DNA of 61,542 bases, the filler included. It is 5 parts of 5 records of this genome, joined end to end, with 100 filler letters (N's around TTAATTAATTAA, not from the genome) between each part and the next. Parts side by side here need not be neighbours in the genome. Positions count along the whole stretch, not along the records: positions 53,725 to 61,542 come from SRR31156797_17894; 4 more parts are not named here. One strand, 5' to 3'. This document shows positions 18,289-61,542 of this stretch, piece by piece. Positions within the stretch are counted from its first letter, which is position 1. Each line of letters begins with the position of its first letter. The notes under the pieces were generated by a model that saw only the letters and a program-made list of their open reading frames with translations, was not told the DNA's origin and searched no databases. Both the position numbers and the translations under genes were made by a program.

Positions 18289-18388
18289 NNNNNNNNNNNN
18301 NNNNNNNNNNNNNNNNNNNNNNNNNNNNNNNNTTAATTAATTAANNNNNNNNNNNNNNNNNNNNNNNNNNNNNNNNNNNNNNNNNNNN
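18289..18388. other. artificial contig-join spacer
   Basis: 44 N + TTAATTAATTAA (stops in all six frames) + 44 N. Confidence 0.99.
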
Positions 18389-53724: not shown

Positions 53725-53944
53725 TAAACGGGTCTACAGCCAGGGGCCGGTCTTCAACCGCGCCAGGATACCAGATATCAATGGTCGTCCAGGCAGGATC
53801 GATCAAGCCTGTTTCGACACCGGCACCAACCTCAATGGTTCTGTTGGGTATAGGGATTCTTGGACTTACAGGCATTGCCCGGAAAAGATAATTTCACCTG
53901 GTTCCAAAACCCGGCAGCCGGATGTTTGTCCTGAATGATATGTG

Positions 53945-53970
53945 CGCGGATCTGTACCATCAGATCCGCG
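53945..53970. other. perfect 10-bp hairpin downstream of the ack fusion
   Basis: CGCGGATCTG-TACCAT-CAGATCCGCG; no poly-T tail. Confidence 0.5.
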
Positions 53971-54034
53971 ATCAGTCAGTTGCAAATACATAAATTGGCT
54001 TTTCAAAACAGAAACATCAAATTACATTGTTGTA

Positions 54035-54195
54035 TTATTTCAGGTAGATTTTTTTTATCTTCTCGCAGGTTCCGTCCTTTTTCATATGTTCCAAAGCGTT
54101 CTGCAGAAGGTTCACGATTTCATCGGAAATGTCTCTATTCAAGGCAATATAATAATCGTATCTGTCGTCGAGCTTTACCACCTTTTCCAGCAGAC
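54035..54195 (-). pseudogene. C-terminal remnant of a family-3 solute-binding protein
   Basis: YYIALNRDISDEIVNLLQNALEHMKKDGTCEKIKKIYLK* is a typical SBP_bac_3 C-terminus; the remaining ~200 aa are absent. Confidence 0.55.
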
Positions 54196-54262
54196 CGAGA
54201 CCTTTGCCCTGATTCTGTCCAGGACCTCCTGCCATCTTTTCTTTTCCACCCGGCGATCCTGA

Positions 54263-56575
54263 TTACTGCACGCTGACCAGGGTTCCTTCCATGCCGGTCT
54301 TGATGTTGGCCGCATTGGCTTCGTCCGTATCGATATGCATGGCCAGACGATAATCCGGATGGACCCGCACCAGGACATCACCGAAGATGAGCGTTCGTTC
54401 CCCTTCCACCCGGACCATTACCAGATCCCCATCCTTCAGCCCGAACGAAAGGGCATCTTCAGGGGGCATATGTATGTGACGGAAGGAGCAGATGACGCCC
54501 TTGGGAATCGAACACGCCCCCTGGGTTCCTTCGAGTTTCAATCCGGGACTGCCTTCTATGGATCCGGATGCCCGGATCGGGGCTTTCACCCCTAATTTGA
54601 ATTCTTCCGTCATGGAGATCTCGACCTGGGTTTCTTTTCTTCTGGGCCCCAGCACCCTGACCCGGTCAACCCGTCCCTTGGGCCCCACCAGATTGACGGT
54701 CTCCTGGCAGGCGAATTGGCCCGGCTGGGAAAGATCGGAGCGGTGGGTCAGCTGAACGTCATCCCCAAATAACATCGCGATTTCCTCTTCGGCCAGATGA
54801 ACGTGATGGGCTGAGACCTCGATGGGGAATTTTTTTTCTTTTTTCTTTTGAATCACCTGGGAAACATTTTCCCGTCCCAGGGCACGAATTGTCTCCCGGG
54901 CGATCATTCGGCCTTCGTCCGCCGGAACCACCAGCACTTTTATCCCGGCGTCCTTTTCTGAGATCTCAACCGGTCCATCCAATTCAGATGGTACAGCGTT
55001 ATTCTTTTTGTCATCGAGCTCGACCCCCATGGGAAACAGTCCCTGGCAGGCCAGCCCCCTCACCCAGGCGCTTTTTTCGGCAGTTCGGCCGGTGAAAACC
55101 AAGGCATCCAGTCCTCCCAGGGCCGAGGTATAGGCCCCGATATATTTTCTTATCCGGTAACAGAATGCCTGGATCGTGAGCTGCGCCCGTGAATCACCTT
55201 TATTGGCGGCCACTTCAATATCATTGAGGTCACTGGAAATCCCGGACAGTCCCTTCAATCCGCTCTGAAGGTTGAGCAGCTCATCCACTTCATCCAGGGA
55301 CAACCCTTTCTCCCGGCACAGATGGATAACGATGGAAGGATCCATATCCCCGCACCGGGTATCCATCATCAAGCCGGCCAAAGGGGTCATCCCCATGCTG
55401 GTGTCAACCGAACGGCCGTGATCAATCGCGCACAGGGAGGCGCCATGATCCAGATGACACGTCACCAGTTTCAATTCGCGATAATCTTCTTTCAGATACG
55501 CGGCGGCTTGGAGCATTGCGTAGTTATGCGAAATGCCATGAAATCCGAATCGCCGGATTTTATCATTCTCAAAATATTCATGGGGAAGCCCGTAAACGCA
55601 GGCATGGGGCGGCATTTTTTGATGAAAAGCGGTATCAAAGACAGCCACCTGGGGAACATTGGAAAAACACCGCTGACTCATTTTAATAACCATAAGGTTC
55701 GGCGGATTGTGCAGGGGGGCCAGCCTCGCATATTCATCAATATCACTTAAGACACGGTCATCAATAAGCACGGCATGACCGTACTTGTCCCCTCCATGCA
55801 CGACCCTGTGACCGATTGCGCTGAGGTCATCCATGTCCCGGATAACCCCATGCACGGGATCGACCAGCACACCGATCAGGCCTTTAAAGGCGTCTTCATA
55901 ACCGACCAGCCCCAGCTCCTTTTTAATCACACCTTTGGGAGTCACCGCGGTGATATAATACGTCTTGTCACCGGACCTTTCGATGACTCCGGTCGTATTC
56001 CCGGATTTATCCCCCGTATTGAAAAAACTGTACTCAATGGATGACAGGCCACAATTGAGTACCAGGATCTTCTGGGGAGTCGTTGTGGACAACGCCAGGC
56101 CATAGGGATCTGTTTGGCTTTTCCAGGCATCACTCACCCGGGCTTGTTCTTCCTCATTCTCCTGACGGCTTTTCAAACGGGCGGTTATGGTTTGCGCAAG
56201 CACTTTCACCGCCTGAACATTAACCGCCACAAAAGAGGAAAACACATCCTGGGGAATAAGAAAAAGATGACATTTACTAATGGCCAGGACATCGGCACTG
56301 GTGGGTTCGCCGGTAAGCAGGGACATTTCGCCCAGAATATCCCCCGGCTTCAGCAGACCGAGCCGAATACGCTTTTCCGCTTCTCCGGAAATGACAGCTT
56401 CGGCTTCGCCATCCAGCATCACACCTAAAAACTTCCCCGGCTGGCCGAACTGTATGATAACGTCTCCGGAAGCATATGACCGCAGATGAGACGCCTCGAT
56501 CAACCGGTTTAGTTCTTCCTGAGAGAATCCGCCGAACAACGGAATCCCGGCTAAAAATTCAGCTATCTGTTCCAT
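54263..56575 (-). CDS. cNMP-binding domain + acetate-kinase-like domain + PduL phosphotransacylase fusion (770 aa)
   Basis: RBS GGAGG, ATG 56575; GDILGEMSLLTGEPTSADV (cNMP); HRVVHGG, APLHN, DTAFH, GFHGISH (AckA); SAHHVHL, LSQPGQFA, RHIHM, MHIDTDEANAA (PduL). Confidence 0.92.
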   Translation of the reverse strand: MEQIAEFLAGIPLFGGFSQEELNRLIEASHLRSYASGDVIIQFGQPGKFLGVMLDGEAEAVISGEAEKRIRLGLLKPGDILGEMSLLTGEPTSADVLAISKCHLFLIPQDVFSSFVAVNVQAVKVLAQTITARLKSRQENEEEQARVSDAWKSQTDPYGLALSTTTPQKILVLNCGLSSIEYSFFNTGDKSGNTTGVIERSGDKTYYITAVTPKGVIKKELGLVGYEDAFKGLIGVLVDPVHGVIRDMDDLSAIGHRVVHGGDKYGHAVLIDDRVLSDIDEYARLAPLHNPPNLMVIKMSQRCFSNVPQVAVFDTAFHQKMPPHACVYGLPHEYFENDKIRRFGFHGISHNYAMLQAAAYLKEDYRELKLVTCHLDHGASLCAIDHGRSVDTSMGMTPLAGLMMDTRCGDMDPSIVIHLCREKGLSLDEVDELLNLQSGLKGLSGISSDLNDIEVAANKGDSRAQLTIQAFCYRIRKYIGAYTSALGGLDALVFTGRTAEKSAWVRGLACQGLFPMGVELDDKKNNAVPSELDGPVEISEKDAGIKVLVVPADEGRMIARETIRALGRENVSQVIQKKKEKKFPIEVSAHHVHLAEEEIAMLFGDDVQLTHRSDLSQPGQFACQETVNLVGPKGRVDRVRVLGPRRKETQVEISMTEEFKLGVKAPIRASGSIEGSPGLKLEGTQGACSIPKGVICSFRHIHMPPEDALSFGLKDGDLVMVRVEGERTLIFGDVLVRVHPDYRLAMHIDTDEANAANIKTGMEGTLVSVQ

Positions 56576-57263
56576 GGATACTACCTCCCAAAGAAGTAAT
56601 TCATATATTAAAAACAAACGACATGGGAGACACTTTGATATCATTCGGATGACCTGAACGATTCACTGATATGACGTGGGATATCGACATCATTTTTGAA
56701 TCATTCAGGATAAATATATCAAATTCATCATCGGCATTCAAGGATCTGTCGAAACGCTTAGTTCAATTCCCGTTCACTGGGGCAACGGGGAAGATTATCC
56801 ACGGGCATCCCATTCAGTCTGTCCTGTGGGCTTATTCTTGGCAAAAAAACGGATAAACAAAAGGTCAGTTATGCCCACGTCACAGAGTGGATTGAGCGGG
56901 GGATGCTCTTTCTTCGCAACATATTTTTCTATATCCCTGTCTTGATTACTAAAATAGAGCCAAAGAGGAAGCATCATGGAAACCGTTCCAGAAGCTGCAT
57001 GAAATACCACATCATGCTTTTGAAAGGCGTCTTTTCAGCTTTTCCGCCCTGGATGTTATCTTCATCATTGAAACCCCAGGTAATTTGCTTTATAAAAAGA
57101 GGATAGCCTTTTGCAACGGGATGAAGCAGCCCCGGGATTACCAGAACTAATTTCCAGCACGCCTGACGCCATTTTGAAACAACCATGTCACAATCACCTT
57201 TGGAACCCTGGTGGCTGAGGTTAACAGAAGAATATCAGAAAGGATCGAGGGCTGGATCATATC

Positions 57264-57791
57264 ATGGGTAAACCAGGAAAAGAACCTTCAAAAACCCAAT
57301 TGATTCTGGATGCCGTCCGGAACAAGGCTGTGGCAGAAAGCTCCCCGGATATGCAGGAAGAAACGGTGGAGCTTGTCATCTTCACCATGGCCCATCGCTA
57401 TTTTGCCTTTCAGGGAAGAGAGGTGAGAGAAATTCTGCCGTTTTCACCCATCACCGAGGTGCCGGGGTGTCCCCGGACCATCCGGGGGATTATCAATGTG
57501 CGCGGGGAGATTGAATCGGTGATAAACCTCCATACCCTTCTTGAACTGGATGAAATGCCGGTCTCCCCCACAACACGGTTTATTCTTGGACGATCCGGGG
57601 AGCTGACGTCCGGTATCCAGGTGGAGCATGTGGCGGATGTGATCTCCATTGAAAGGACGAGGATAAAGCCTGCCATCTCCACATTGTCCCCCGCCATAAG
57701 GAACTATGCCCATGGAGGTGAGGAATTGTATAAAGGGCACTATGTCATTATGCTCAGTATGGAACATGTGTTTAAAAACCTGTTGAACTGA
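57264..57791 (+). CDS. cheW: chemotaxis coupling protein CheW
   Basis: VREIL...ITEVPG...GIINVRGEIESVINL. Confidence 0.9.
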   Translation: MGKPGKEPSKTQLILDAVRNKAVAESSPDMQEETVELVIFTMAHRYFAFQGREVREILPFSPITEVPGCPRTIRGIINVRGEIESVINLHTLLELDEMPVSPTTRFILGRSGELTSGIQVEHVADVISIERTRIKPAISTLSPAIRNYAHGGEELYKGHYVIMLSMEHVFKNLLN

Positions 57792-57827
57792 TCCAGCCAT
57801 GTACGAAATAAAAGGGGAAACTTTTCC

Positions 57828-58211
57828 ATGAAAAGTGACTTGACCCTTCTTTTATTCAATATCATGGACATTGACTTTGGGATGGATGTGACGCCGGTCA
57901 AAGCCATGGACCATGTGGAAGGCCTTCCGGACGGAGAATCCGGGGTTGTCTGGTTCCATGAAAAAATTGATTTCCCCCGCACCCCTGTGCTATATAATTT
58001 GCCAAGGGCGCTGCGCATTGAAACAGAAAAAAAACGGTTTCACCTGGTTATTGATAATCCCCGGGATATGCCCCTTGTTATTCCCATTGAGAAGATAAAA
58101 CCTTTTCCTGTACTGGTTGAACAGTTCCTCCCAGCCTCACCGCTTTGGGCCGTATGTCCTCACGAAGAGCGTATTTTGCTATTGGTGGATCCCCTTGAAA
58201 TGTACCGGTGA
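57828..58211 (+). CDS. short divergent CheW-like protein
   Basis: LLLFNIMDIDFGMDV..V...IKPFP...ILLLVDP; lacks the NxRG core. Confidence 0.65.
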   Translation: MKSDLTLLLFNIMDIDFGMDVTPVKAMDHVEGLPDGESGVVWFHEKIDFPRTPVLYNLPRALRIETEKKRFHLVIDNPRDMPLVIPIEKIKPFPVLVEQFLPASPLWAVCPHEERILLLVDPLEMYR

Positions 58212-58297
58212 ATCTCCCCGATGCCCCCCGGAAGAATGGAATTCCCGGGGTGCAGACTTAAAACTCGGGTGTCTAACCTTAAATTTGAGGATTGACC

Positions 58298-60319
58298 ATG
58301 AATTTAAGACAGAAGAACACCATTCCCTCTTTCATTATCATGATCGCCATTTTCGCCGTAGGATCGTTGGTAACGGTGAATAAGCTGAACGAATTAAAGA
58401 AGAACATCGTCTCCAGGCCAATGGAAAATTCCATGGAGGTGCTTTTGCGAAGCGTGGAATTCACCGCCCAGCAGACCCTGGAAAAATCGTCGCTTTTCTC
58501 CCGGTTGCCCCAGGTGATCAAGGCCTTTGAACTTGCCCATTCCGGCGACATCGATGATCCCCGGGACGAGCAGGGCCAACGGGCACGGGAAATGCTCAGG
58601 CGGGAACTCAGGACCGCCATGGACGGTTATGAGATCGTCACCGGCAACGGCCCGATGAAGCTTCATTTTCACCTGCCCAACGGCCGAAGCCTGGTTCGCA
58701 TGTGGCGACAGCGGCAGATCAGGATCAATGGTAAGTGGGAAGACAGGTCCGATGATATTTCCGACTTCCGCCATACGGTTCTGGACGTCAACACCACGGG
58801 GAAACCGGTCAGGGGAATTGAACTTGGCCGGGGCGGATTTGTGATCCGGGGACTTTCTCCCATTGTGAATTCCCAGGGACGCCCCCTTGGATCAGTGGAG
58901 GTGCTGTTTGATTTTGCCCCCCTGGTGAAAACCCTGTTCGCGGATGATCATTATTTTGCCCGGCTATACATGAACAAGCAGTTTCTCTCCATTACCCACC
59001 GGCTCCAGAACACGGGAAAATACCCCGTTGTTGAAAATCGCTATGTCCAGGTCATGGGAAAGCAAATAGAGGATGGACCCGACGGGAAATGGGCTCTCTC
59101 CCTCATGAATCAGGGAAAGGCCGATTTCGCCATTCAAATGAACGGAAAAAAAGCCATGGCTGCTTTTCCAATCAAAGATTACAAGGCGACCCAGATCGGT
59201 GTGATGACCCTGGAAACGGATATGACGGAAGAGTATGCCCTGGTTCGAAATATTATTGTATTCCAGGTGGTGATGCTTTTTCTGGTTATCATCGCCCTGG
59301 GCGTGCTCAGTTCCCTGTTCCTGTCCCGAACCGTTTTAAAACCGGTGGCCGGCATAATGGCCATATCCAGGCAATTGTCCAAAGGGGACTTGAGGAATAC
59401 CGTTGAAGTGACCTCAAAGGATGAAATCGGGGTCTTGTCGGAAACCATCAATTTCATGGTCCGGTCGGTCCGGGAGGTGGTGAGCAAGCTCGTCGAGGTG
59501 GTGACCCGTCTGACCACCAACAGCGACCAGATCAACAAGGCCCTCCAGGACCAGATATCCAGCGCTTCGGAACAGTCGGCATCGGTGTCTGAAATCACCT
59601 CCACCATGGCTGAATTTTCCGCATCCTCCAGACAGATTGCCGAACATGCCGATACGGTTCTCACCATTGCCGAAGAGGCCCTTAACCACGCCAATGAAGG
59701 GGAACAATCCGTTTCACGGGTGACGGATAAGATGGAAGAGATTCACACCGGCAATGAGAATACGGTAAAGGGAATCCATGAGCTGGGAAACAAAACCCGT
59801 GAAATTGCCAAAATCATGGAGATCATCAACAACATTGCGGACCAGACAAAGCTGATTGCCTTTAATGCCGCCCTGGAGGCCTCCAGCGCCGGTGAAGCCG
59901 GAAAACGGTTTGGCGTGGTCGCCATTGAGATCAGGCGCCTGGCCGAAAATGTGGAAGCCTCCACCCGTGAGACGGAAAAAAGGGTAAACGAAATACAGGA
60001 TGCGGTGGACAACATGATGCTGGCTTCGGAACAAAATACCCGTTGCATCAATGAAGGGTTGAGTTTTACCTCCCACACCCGGGAAACACTTGCCAATATT
60101 GTCGGCAGGTCCCAGGATACCCGGGATGCGGCTCAACAGATCACCCTGTCCACCCAGCAGCAGAAAACCGCCAGTGACCAGGTGGTCCAGGCCCTGCGGG
60201 AGATCGATGAGAGTGGACGGCATACCACCCGGGCCATCAAACAGATCGGGGATAACGGGGAAACATTGAACCAGCTGGCAGAACAGCTGGATACACTAAT
60301 TCATGGATTTAAGCTTTGA
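58298..60319 (+). CDS. methyl-accepting chemotaxis protein (TM-Cache-TM-HAMP-MA)
   Basis: [15 protein letters not shown]...DDISDFR...GIELGRGG (Cache), DEIG (HAMP), [30 protein letters not shown]. Confidence 0.95.
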
Positions 60320-60343
60320 TTTTTTACGTCTAGGAACAATGCC

Positions 60344-61369
60344 ATGAAACCGGTACGGGTTTTGATTGTGGATGACAGCTCCCTGGTTCGGGATTTCCTG
60401 ACGGAGATTCTGGCATCGGACAAGGAGATCGAGGTGGTGGGCAAGGCCGGCAACGGCCTTGAAGCCCTGGAAAAGATTGCCGCGCTCAAGCCGGATATTG
60501 TCACCATGGACATTAAAATGCCTGAAATGGATGGGATGATGGCCATTGAACAGATCATGGGCGGAGAAAATTCACTGCCCATTCTGGTGGTAACCTCCCT
60601 GGATGATTCCGGCACCGCATATGACGCGATCTCAAGGGGAGCACTGGAAGTGATTCCCAAACCGAATATGAGGCGATTGAACGCCGAATCCTTTGCCCAA
60701 AGGATCAAACTGCTTTCCAAGGTAAAAGTGGTGCGTCATATTCGAAGCCGGACCTACAAAAAAAATAATACTGAAAACAGGTGTTCTGCCAGGACAATCC
60801 CTCAAATCATTGCCATTGCAAGCTCCACAGGGGGGCCCGGGGTGTTGGCCTGTCTGTTTGGCAGGCTTGAACATTGTCTGGATGTACCGGTGGTGGTGGC
60901 CCAGCACATTGCCAGGGGATTTGATACCGGCCTGGTGAAATGGCTGAACCGCAAGGCCCCCAATGCCCACGTAAAAAAGGGGGTTCCAGGGGAACGGCTC
61001 AAGCCGGGGGTCATCTATATTTCACCCTCCTACGGCCACATGGAGATCACCCCCCGGAACACCATTGAGGTCTTTCCTCCCGGGCCGAGGGATATTTATA
61101 CGCCCTCCTGCGATCGGCTGCTGACTTCCGTTGCCAGGACACATGGGCAATTTTCCATGGCCCTTGTATTGACGGGGATGGGCAATGACGGAACAGCAGG
61201 CGCCCAGGCCGTCAAACAGGCCGGAGGCACAACCATTGCCCAGGATAAAGCCTCGTCCGTTGTGTATGGCATGCCCCGGGCAGCCGTGGAAAAAGGCTGC
61301 ATAGATCGGGTGATGTCCCTCAATGAAATAAGCAAATGCCTGAACGGCATGATCAGGGAAAGATCATGA
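60344..61369 (+). CDS. cheB: chemotaxis methylesterase CheB (REC + catalytic domain)
   Basis: IVDDS, MDIKMP, ASSTGGP, QHI, TGMGNDG, VYGMP. Confidence 0.95.
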   Translation: MKPVRVLIVDDSSLVRDFLTEILASDKEIEVVGKAGNGLEALEKIAALKPDIVTMDIKMPEMDGMMAIEQIMGGENSLPILVVTSLDDSGTAYDAISRGALEVIPKPNMRRLNAESFAQRIKLLSKVKVVRHIRSRTYKKNNTENRCSARTIPQIIAIASSTGGPGVLACLFGRLEHCLDVPVVVAQHIARGFDTGLVKWLNRKAPNAHVKKGVPGERLKPGVIYISPSYGHMEITPRNTIEVFPPGPRDIYTPSCDRLLTSVARTHGQFSMALVLTGMGNDGTAGAQAVKQAGGTTIAQDKASSVVYGMPRAAVEKGCIDRVMSLNEISKCLNGMIRERS

Positions 61370-61542
61370 GCTTTTCCTGTATTAAAAAATTTGTTTACCA
61401 GCGAACCGGCCTTACCTTTGACGCCTATCGCACCATGATACTCAAGGAGAAGATTTCCCGGCACATGGCGGCATTGGAGATGGATGACATGAAAACCTAT
61501 TGGTATGAAATCCGTCATGACCAAACACTCTTTGATAACCTT
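61366..61542 (+). CDS. cheR: chemotaxis methyltransferase CheR, N-terminal part (runs off window; absent from ORF track)
   Basis: ATGA overlap with the cheB stop; MSFSCIKKFVYQRTGLTFD...LKEKISRHM...TYW resembles CheR_N. Confidence 0.8.
   Translation, partial: MSFSCIKKFVYQRTGLTFDAYRTMILKEKISRHMAALEMDDMKTYWYEIRHDQTLFDNL

Follow-up and report, generated by a model that had tools for sequence, protein, structure and literature searches.

An AckA-like domain with a rewritten nucleotide site in a cNMP-AckA-PduL fusion protein: a probable lineage-specific pseudokinase

The fusion gene and its domains

The stretch of DNA analysed here, called the window throughout, comprises 61,542 nucleotides and consists of five contigs joined by N-run spacers around TTAATTAATTAA, with the spacers located at positions 18333, 28627, 45037 and 53669. 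Since the G+C content jumps between the pieces (about 0.63, 0.42, 0.52, 0.63 and 0.52), the five contigs may stem from more than one source organism. The feature under study is situated on the last piece (53726-61542), where one gene encodes a fusion of a cyclic nucleotide monophosphate (cNMP)-binding-like domain, an acetate kinase-like (AckA-like) domain of the ASKHA fold and a phosphotransacylase domain of the PduL type (Table 1). In the central domain the positions contacting ATP are replaced, whereas the acyl-phosphate site is kept, and we regard this domain as probably a lineage-specific pseudokinase within a regulated PduL enzyme.

The kinase-like interval 54890-56070 lies inside a single uninterrupted open reading frame (ORF; 54263..56644, minus strand, 793 aa), which contains neither frameshifts nor internal stops. 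The true start is likely the ATG at 56575, because a Shine-Dalgarno motif is found 8 nt upstream and the resulting 770-aa product aligns gap-free with a 770-aa homologue encoded on contig L001, which belongs to a metagenome-assembled genome of the Desulfobacteraceae. Residue numbers of the domains refer to the 793-aa frame.

Table 1. Coordinates of the fusion gene, its domains and motifs, and the adjacent gene cluster (numbering of motif residues after the M. thermophila enzyme)
Feature	Position	Strand	Remarks
Whole gene, cNMP-binding + AckA-like + PduL fusion	54263..56575	-	770 aa from the likely start ATG 56575; longer 793-aa frame opens at 56644
Shine-Dalgarno GGGAGG	56584..56589	-	8 nt upstream of ATG 56575
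cNMP-binding-like domain	56225..56482	-	Pfam cNMP_binding, residues 55-140, E 7.4e-18
AckA-like (ASKHA) domain	54896..56071	-	Pfam Acetate_kinase, residues 192-583, E 3.5e-120, model 1-392 complete
PHOSPHATE1 NCGLSSIE	56033..56056	-	canonical NAGSSSLK; S10L, K14E; N7 kept
GHRVVHG	55793..55813	-	R91 and V93 (acyl/phosphoryl site) intact
DTAFH	55622..55636	-	D148 intact
GFHG	55535..55546	-	F179 and H180 intact
PHOSPHATE2 HLDHG	55442..55456	-	canonical HLGNG; G210D, N211H
LOOP3 MMDTR	55355..55369	-	canonical MGTR; G239D; R241 kept
LOOP4 DLN	55223..55231	-	canonical DFR; R285N; D283 kept
ADENOSINE FTGRTAEKS	55070..55096	-	AGIGEN to GRTAEK: G331R, I332T, G333A, N335K (Lys at 335)
PADEG	54911..54925	-	T382A; E384 kept
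PduL (PTAC) domain	54299..54826	-	Pfam PTAC/PduL, residues 607-782, E 2.3e-74
Wsp-like chemosensory genes (presumed)	57264..61369	+	CheW, 127-aa ORF, methyl-accepting chemotaxis protein (dCache_3-HAMP), CheB; divergent from the fusion, 690 bp away

With 403.6 bits the middle domain exceeds the cut-off of the NCBIfam model TIGR00016 (293.4) and stays below the cut-off of every equivalog model. It belongs to the acetate/propionate kinase family (PF00871, TIGR00016) by both sequence and fold. An AlphaFold2 model of the domain displays a mean pLDDT (predicted local distance difference test) of 91.5 and a pTM (predicted template modelling score) of 0.90, with the lowest block over LOOP3, and can be superimposed on 1G99, 2IIR and 6IOY with template modelling (TM) scores of 0.92-0.95.

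The numbering of Methanosarcina thermophila acetate kinase (MtACK) was transferred by HMMER alignments to 2IIR (T. maritima, E 9.3e-108) and to 1TUU/1G99 (M. thermophila, E about 2e-105). The original prediction had listed substitutions in the ATP-binding motifs (S10L, K14E, HLDHG, MDTR, R285N and RTAEK), next to an intact R91, APLHN, D148, H180, R241 and E384 in a gene free of frameshifts. These alignments confirmed every listed substitution, and the intact residues and the open frame were likewise verified. Two further changes, E234A and T382A, are seen in the alignment and were absent from that list. Unchanged in the domain are N7, R91, V93, L122, H123, D148, F179, H180, P232, R241 and E384.

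The positions concerned are S10, G210, N211, G239, R285, G331 and G333. Across 120 stand-alone AckA homologues these residues show no substitution (present in 117-120, the remainder being gaps), and they are kept in 115-118 of 118 canonical fusions. Among the stand-alone enzymes, G210, N211, G239, R285, G331 and G333 are each found in 120/120, S10 in 117/120 and K14 in 116/120, with gaps or Arg in the rest. At position 335 the baseline of the fusion family is Gly (113/121) and not Asn. Judged from these alignments, the rewriting of the motifs goes far beyond chance.

For R91, H123, D148, F179, H180, R241 and E384 we assume acyl/phosphoryl-site or catalytic roles in AckA. The remaining site assignments were drawn from the passages of PMC4390882 on N7, S10, S11, S12 and K14 of PHOSPHATE1, on N211, G239 and G331, on R285 with D283, and on V93, L122 and P232, whereas positions 330, 331, 332 and 335 follow the account of Yoshioka et al. 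given there. G210 and G333 were added to the nucleotide site as motif neighbours that are invariant in stand-alone AckAs, resulting in a list of 14 positions (S10, S11, S12, K14, G210, N211, G239, D283, R285, 330-333 and 335). The window protein differs from the consensus of the canonical fusions at 10 of these 14 positions and at 126 of the 372 AckA positions outside both sites, but at none of the 11 positions of the acyl/phosphoryl site (nucleotide against acyl site, p = 5e-4). The clustering of the changes at the nucleotide site, which had been noticed earlier from the sequence, is thus confirmed.

An alignment of the PduL domain to 5CUO, the PduL of R. palustris, has an E value of 8.4e-46, and the counterparts of all functional residues are present: HxH and Glu of the first zinc site, HxH and His of the second, Arg103, Ser127 and Asn211. 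The roles of these residues, including the zinc ligands, the phosphate-positioning Arg103 and Ser127, are as described in the relevant passages of PMC4784909. Moreover, the stretches AHHVHL, ETQVEIS, RHIHM, MHIDTDEAN, LGPRRKE and RASG are conserved. The PduL half is therefore predicted to be a competent phosphotransacylase.

The N-terminal domain matches PF00027 with 64.7 bits (cut-off 27.5) and is intact relative to the fusion family. Its phosphate-binding cassette, GEMSLLTGEPTSAD (56300-56341, minus strand, residues 102-115), contains GEPTSAD and thereby places a Thr in the column of the Arg that, as we take it, normally holds the cyclic phosphate in cNMP-binding domains. This Thr is a family-wide property, since GEPT[NS]AD is found in 117 of the 119 members with a residue at this column. 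Because Thr replaces the cyclic-phosphate Arg, the ligand is uncertain and may be one other than cAMP or cGMP.

Origin of the rewriting and constraint on the domain

The AckA region was compared with 5.8 billion clustered proteins, which gave 7763 matches. The best 120 all combine PF00871 with PF06130, and 118 of them carry PF00027 as well. The cNMP-AckA-PduL proteins form a large family of about 773 aa, with records labelled Aminicenantes, Chloroflexi, Deltaproteobacteria and others. When the window protein is added to these best 120 matches, canonical ATP motifs (NCGSSSLK, HLGNG, MGTR, DxR and GGIGEG) are found in 118 of 121 sequences. The rewritten motifs are restricted to three: the window protein, P0002 (88% identity; encoded in L001) and P0003 (75%). 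The substitutions mark a clade and extend beyond the window sequence.

A scan of genome contigs for further members of this clade returned L001 alone, and a scan of metagenome contigs returned none, the best AckA-covering matches being 44-59% identical. Neither were clade fragments found among shorter proteins, where the best matches reached 54-56% identity. Of 151 genomes from the family to which the relative belongs, 3 encode a full-length fusion, and the two besides that of the relative show 44-46% identity and canonical ATP motifs. These two fusions (L047 in genome G023 and L048 in genome G109) display changed acyl-pocket motifs, with AHRGTLG or AHRNSLG in place of GHRVVHG and GYHG in place of GFHG, and may thus prefer another acyl substrate.

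In a FastTree phylogeny the three rewritten members are monophyletic with a support of 1.0, on a stem of 0.29 substitutions per site (median branch 0.04). The clade nests within the canonical 773-aa group in the whole-protein tree, in the AckA-alone tree and in the trees of the cNMP and PduL domains alone. Deep nodes of these trees are weak, and for this reason the trees were used for nesting and monophyly alone. Since the clade is monophyletic and nested among canonical fusions, the phylogeny indicates that the canonical state is ancestral and that the rewriting is a derived, single event on the clade stem.

The distribution of changes over the protein was determined at columns in which at least 95% of the 118 canonical fusions agree. 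In the AckA domain all three clade members differ from the family in 18 of 159 such columns, and some of them differ in 14 more. The corresponding values are 0 of 31 with one more column for the cNMP domain, and 0 of 87 with one more column for PduL. With respect to columns changed in all three members, AckA differs from cNMP and PduL combined with a Fisher p of 3e-5. When stem lengths were re-estimated per domain on a fixed topology, the stem amounted to 0.40 substitutions per site (2.9% of tree length) for AckA, 0.26 (1.35%) for cNMP and 0.10 (0.8%) for PduL.

The ratio of nonsynonymous to synonymous substitution rates (dN/dS) between the window gene and its 90% identical counterpart in L001 (dS about 0.31) is nearly the same in all domains: 0.157 in AckA, 0.153 in cNMP and 0.161 in PduL. 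Purifying selection on the AckA domain is therefore as strong as on the other two domains. Given this agreement in dN/dS and the confident fold model, the domain is no drifting remnant.

Within the domain, constraint is distributed unevenly. Among the three clade members 9 of the 14 nucleotide-site positions vary, compared with 105 of 372 other AckA positions (28%, p = 0.006) and none of the 11 acyl/phosphoryl-site positions. N7, R91, D148, H180, R241, E384, V93, L122, F179 and P232 are invariant in the three members and identical to MtACK, whereas position 211 is H/Q/K, 239 is D/D/S, 285 is N/N/S, 331 is R/R/S, 332 is T/I/I, 335 is K/S/S and 14 is E/E/K. In pairwise comparison, the window protein differs from P0003 at 8 of 14 nucleotide-site and 91 of 372 other positions (p = 0.011), and from P0002 at 4 of 14 and 43 of 372 (p = 0.077). 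Within the clade, no part of the AckA domain changes faster than the positions of the former ATP site. New states fixed in all three members are L10, D210, A234, A333 and A382.

Loss of nucleotide binding, with a continuing need for the acyl-phosphate/acetate half of the cleft, would be expected to leave such a pattern of a hypervariable nucleotide site next to a static acyl pocket. A new, tuned acceptor site is disfavoured, since such a site would be expected to be conserved. The nucleotide subsite therefore looks like a region released from constraint and not like a new optimised pocket. The original prediction had ascribed the clustered changes to selection rather than random decay. This holds for the fold and for the acyl-phosphate subsite, which have remained under selection, but probably not for the nucleotide site itself.

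Known acetate kinases and the probable role of the domain

Full-length homology connects the domain to MtACK (1G99, 1TUU/1TUY) and to bacterial AckA, TdcD and PduW, with 43% identity to MtACK, an E value of 2e-105, a TM score of 0.92 and ten identical acyl/phosphoryl-site residues. It differs from them by the replacement of ATP-contact positions in PHOSPHATE1, PHOSPHATE2, LOOP3, LOOP4 and ADENOSINE, and by its location between a cNMP-like and a PduL domain. According to the mutagenesis passages of PMC4390882, N211 of MtACK contacts the beta-phosphate and forms a hydrogen bond with G239, and G331 contacts the alpha- and beta-phosphates. In the same passages the variants N211S, G239S and G331Q each show a specific activity reduced about 117- to 200-fold, and variants of R285 a kcat reduced about 7- to 9-fold. 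By analogy, at least eight such changes in combination should abolish ATP-dependent catalysis.

A fusion of Ack to PduL as such is not new. Erbilgin et al. (2016) noted Ack-PduL fusions and proposed channelling between both enzymes (PMC4784909). As in the fusions described in that passage, PduL, with its two PF06130 halves, is fused to Ack and lacks an encapsulation peptide. However, an active Ack is assumed there, and an N-terminal cNMP-like domain is unmentioned in the passage. With the nucleotide site of Ack apparently lost, channelling to ATP would not be the purpose of the window fusion. In concept the domain resembles ROK-family repressors such as NagC and Mlc, non-catalytic ASKHA folds which keep a small-molecule pocket, do not phosphorylate and are used as sensor or scaffold. 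These repressors belong to a different ASKHA family, and the window protein contains no DNA-binding domain. The open-access literature searched yielded no description of an acetate-kinase pseudokinase or a nucleotide-dead AckA.

These observations fit best with one option of the original prediction, namely a kinase that is dead but retains the binding of acetyl-phosphate or acetate; PduL would then be the sole catalyst. The ATP/ADP subsite would have been lost from a canonical cNMP-AckA-PduL enzyme in the ancestor shared by the window gene, P0002 and P0003, with selection continuing to act on the AckA fold and on the acetate/acetyl-phosphate subsite. The present protein would be a regulated phosphotransacylase of the PduL type, catalysing acyl-CoA + Pi <-> acyl-phosphate + CoA. 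Its AckA-like domain is predicted to bind neither ATP nor ADP and to act as a structural module for dimerisation or coupling, which probably binds acyl-phosphate or acetate and may be controlled by the N-terminal ligand-binding domain.

ATP chemistry would be performed by an ordinary Pta-AckA couple elsewhere in the genome, as in the close relative. Its genome (G001, 7.9 Mb) encodes two further AckA proteins, both with canonical motifs. The first (517 bits) lies directly downstream of a pta gene of the DRTGG-PTA_PTB type (L023 1-2700, on contig G001:C103), so that ATP-linked acetate metabolism is available independently of the fusion. The second canonical ackA adjoins a gene for a multi-4Fe-4S protein (L025).

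AckA serves as a textbook example of the ASKHA enzymes, with ATP motifs that are regarded as universal. If the pseudokinase interpretation is correct, the domain represents a clean case of subsite-specific loss, in which the nucleotide subsite was destroyed and the acetyl-phosphate subsite kept under purifying selection. It would also provide a natural scaffold for asking what an ATP-incapable AckA fold does, be it sensing, scaffolding or transfer to another acceptor. At present such proteins are named 'acetate/propionate family kinase', and metabolic reconstructions of sulfate reducers would wrongly assign substrate-level phosphorylation to them.

Several points weigh against this interpretation. 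The site lists rest in part on assumed residue roles and were compiled after the list of the original prediction was known. Three clade members are known, two of them about 89% identical, which means that the statistics on variability and conservation rest on very few independent lineages; likewise, dN/dS describes one sequence pair, and the deep tree nodes have a support of 0.2-0.24. Loss of nucleotide binding is extrapolated from mutagenesis of an enzyme that is 43% identical. The acyl-site residues might be kept for structural roles in the cleft and not for ligand binding. Finally, the five fixed new states and the co-occurrence of D239 and R331, which might plug the nucleotide cleft as an ion pair, could just as well denote a pocket that is new and in part specified.

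Alternatively, the domain could still be a phosphotransferase with another donor or acceptor, passing the phosphoryl group of acetyl-phosphate to Pi (yielding pyrophosphate, PPi), to polyphosphate, to water (as an acyl-phosphatase) or to another non-nucleotide acceptor. The intact acyl/phosphoryl-site and Mg2+ residues (N7, R91, D148, H180, R241 and E384 in all three members) and the clade-fixed residues L10, D210 and A333 speak in favour of this idea, for which the PPi-dependent acetate kinase of Entamoeba (EhACK) provides a natural precedent. According to the passages available from PMC5517563, this enzyme is the sole known acetate kinase not using ATP. Its adenosine pocket is occluded by Gln323-Met324 and PPi probably sits at the beta/gamma-phosphate positions. 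Similar to EhACK (4H0O) and its look-alikes from Anaerolineaceae, the window protein combines a bulky residue at the equivalent of G331 (Arg, found in two of the three members; Gln in EhACK) with non-canonical residues at 211 and 239 and a retained acyl-phosphate site.

The likeness does not extend to the features that distinguish PPi-type enzymes. According to PMC5517563, the eight putative PPi-type sequences all have two hallmarks in common, a PHOSPHATE2 made longer by an additional Gly and an Asp immediately before the equivalent of position 331. Both are absent from the window protein: CHLDHGAS aligns gap-free with CHLGNGSS of MtACK, and position 330 is Gly in 3/3 members (FTG-R/S). In addition, S10 and K14 are lost as well, two Asp are introduced at the phosphate-binding loops and identity to 4H0O amounts to 31%. 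Trees derive the window clade from canonical fusions and not from the EhACK group. The residues at the beta/gamma-phosphate positions are replaced, three of them by acidic ones (K14E, G210D and G239D), which disfavours an anionic acceptor. The variable pocket described above does not resemble a tuned site, and P0003 has Ser at 331. The PPi-type enzyme suggested by the original prediction is thus not borne out, and an alternative phosphotransferase of any kind appears unlikely.

Still less probable is an ATP- or NTP-dependent acetate/propionate kinase in which compensating changes keep the nucleotide bound in an unusual geometry. In favour of it, the domain scores above the TIGR00016 cut-off, the fold prediction is highly confident, some activity remains after every single substitution published (PMC4390882, mutagenesis passages), and R331 and K335 could give new phosphate contacts. 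However, at least eight positions that are invariant in 238 canonical sequences have changed simultaneously, where single changes already cost 100- to 200-fold, and the putative compensators themselves vary within the clade.

Adjacent chemosensory genes and other degenerate lineages

The genes divergent from the fusion (Table 1) include a 127-aa ORF (57828-58211) without a match in Pfam or NCBIfam. The cluster of the relative (L001 3-7631; extension L066 1-1709) continues with CheR-TPR, a CheA-CheW hybrid with a receiver (REC) domain, and REC-GGDEF, and we take it to be a chemosensory pathway of the Wsp type whose output is a diguanylate cyclase. Between the stop codon of the fusion and the end of the window, the DNA of L001 is about 90% identical to that of the window, and the similarity stops exactly at this stop codon. 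Because both genomes are so close, the adjacency counts as one observation. Che genes are found near none of nine canonical-fusion loci, and these loci share no conserved neighbourhood. A functional link between the fusion and the Che cluster is a lead only.

Acetyl-phosphate is an established small-molecule donor for the phosphorylation of receiver domains. The fusion protein could hence be a dedicated source or presenter of acetyl-phosphate for the receivers of the adjacent pathway (CheB, CheA-REC and REC-GGDEF), since its intact PduL would make acetyl-phosphate that the protein itself does not drain to ATP. With one independent case of adjacency set against none among the canonical loci, such a role is improbable.

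Degenerate AckA domains occur outside the window clade as well. In a phmmer search against 1.84 billion 50%-identity representatives, the best 150 matches include five proteins of fusion length with a degenerate AckA and intact PduL motifs (P0242, P0264, P0312, P0356 and P0379), two with a degenerate AckA that have also lost PduL zinc ligands (P0249 and P0253) and one, P0255, with a canonical AckA and a degenerate PduL. As these lineages are located on other branches of the tree, the loss in the window clade is independent. At least five of nine ATP-site positions are changed in 12 other proteins among the best 150 (P0244, P0253, P0264, P0303, P0312, P0326, P0327, P0332, P0343, P0351, P0356 and P0379). 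The set of six catalytic residues is complete in only three of these 12, P0326, P0327 and P0351, each a stand-alone protein of about 400 aa. With eight of nine ATP-site positions and none of six catalytic residues changed, the window protein is the most lopsided among the matches listed.

The recurrence of full-length, apparently kinase-dead AckA domains argues for a non-catalytic job in the fusion architecture, and several lineages with a degenerate AckA or PduL half suggest roles of the tripartite fusion past simple channelling. The least credible alternative is a functionless remnant drifting to loss beside a PduL and a cNMP domain that alone matter: although the AckA stem is 1.5- to 4-fold longer than those of the other domains, the within-clade length is somewhat higher too and catalytic residues are lost in other lineages as well (P0244, P0253 and P0379), the dN/dS value equal to those of the other two domains, the lack of any indel relative to L001 across 770 aa, the 11 acyl-site positions unchanged in every member, the confident AlphaFold2 model and the retention of degenerate AckA at full length in several old lineages all favour a non-catalytic role over drift.

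In its widest form, the pseudokinase interpretation would hold that the cNMP-AckA-PduL family repeatedly turns its kinase half into an acyl-phosphate-binding pseudokinase. The window clade would then be a ligand-gated acetyl-phosphate generator, with AckA holding or sensing the product, which feeds the Wsp-like receivers and couples acetyl-CoA status to signalling by cyclic diguanylate (c-di-GMP). As a whole, this scenario is a speculation of low probability.

Besides the phosphate-loop changes of the window protein, related patterns can be observed in the stand-alone proteins P0326, P0327 and P0351, and also in P0358. Here PHOSPHATE1 (e.g. NCRIHSVDF), PHOSPHATE2 and LOOP3 are altered, and no change affects N7, R91, D148, H180, R241 or E384. 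Two of the three proteins P0326, P0327 and P0351 have a canonical ADENOSINE motif. P0327 shares G210D and G239D with the window protein, and P0358 has HLDHG.

No Rfam family matched 53726-61542 at E <= 0.1, and hence no riboswitch was detected in the 690-bp divergent intergenic region. Contigs from a marine-sediment metatranscriptome (X3), about 88% identical to the gene, cover 29 of 30 gene bins, with one piece of 1398 nt showing 163 differences. A further close relative thus exists and may be transcribed, although carry-over of DNA is possible. A second data set (X2, DNA) contributed four short pieces of conserved segments alone, at less than 90% identity, and is uninformative. A third one (X1) contains the stretch free of differences on a contig of 34.5 kb and probably represents its source. 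On the other side of the fusion gene, the 537 bp at 53726-54262 contain one ORF of 66 aa on the minus strand (54035-54235) and another of 36 aa on the plus strand (53781-53891) that ends in a PEP-CTERM-like tail, resemblances that were noted by eye.

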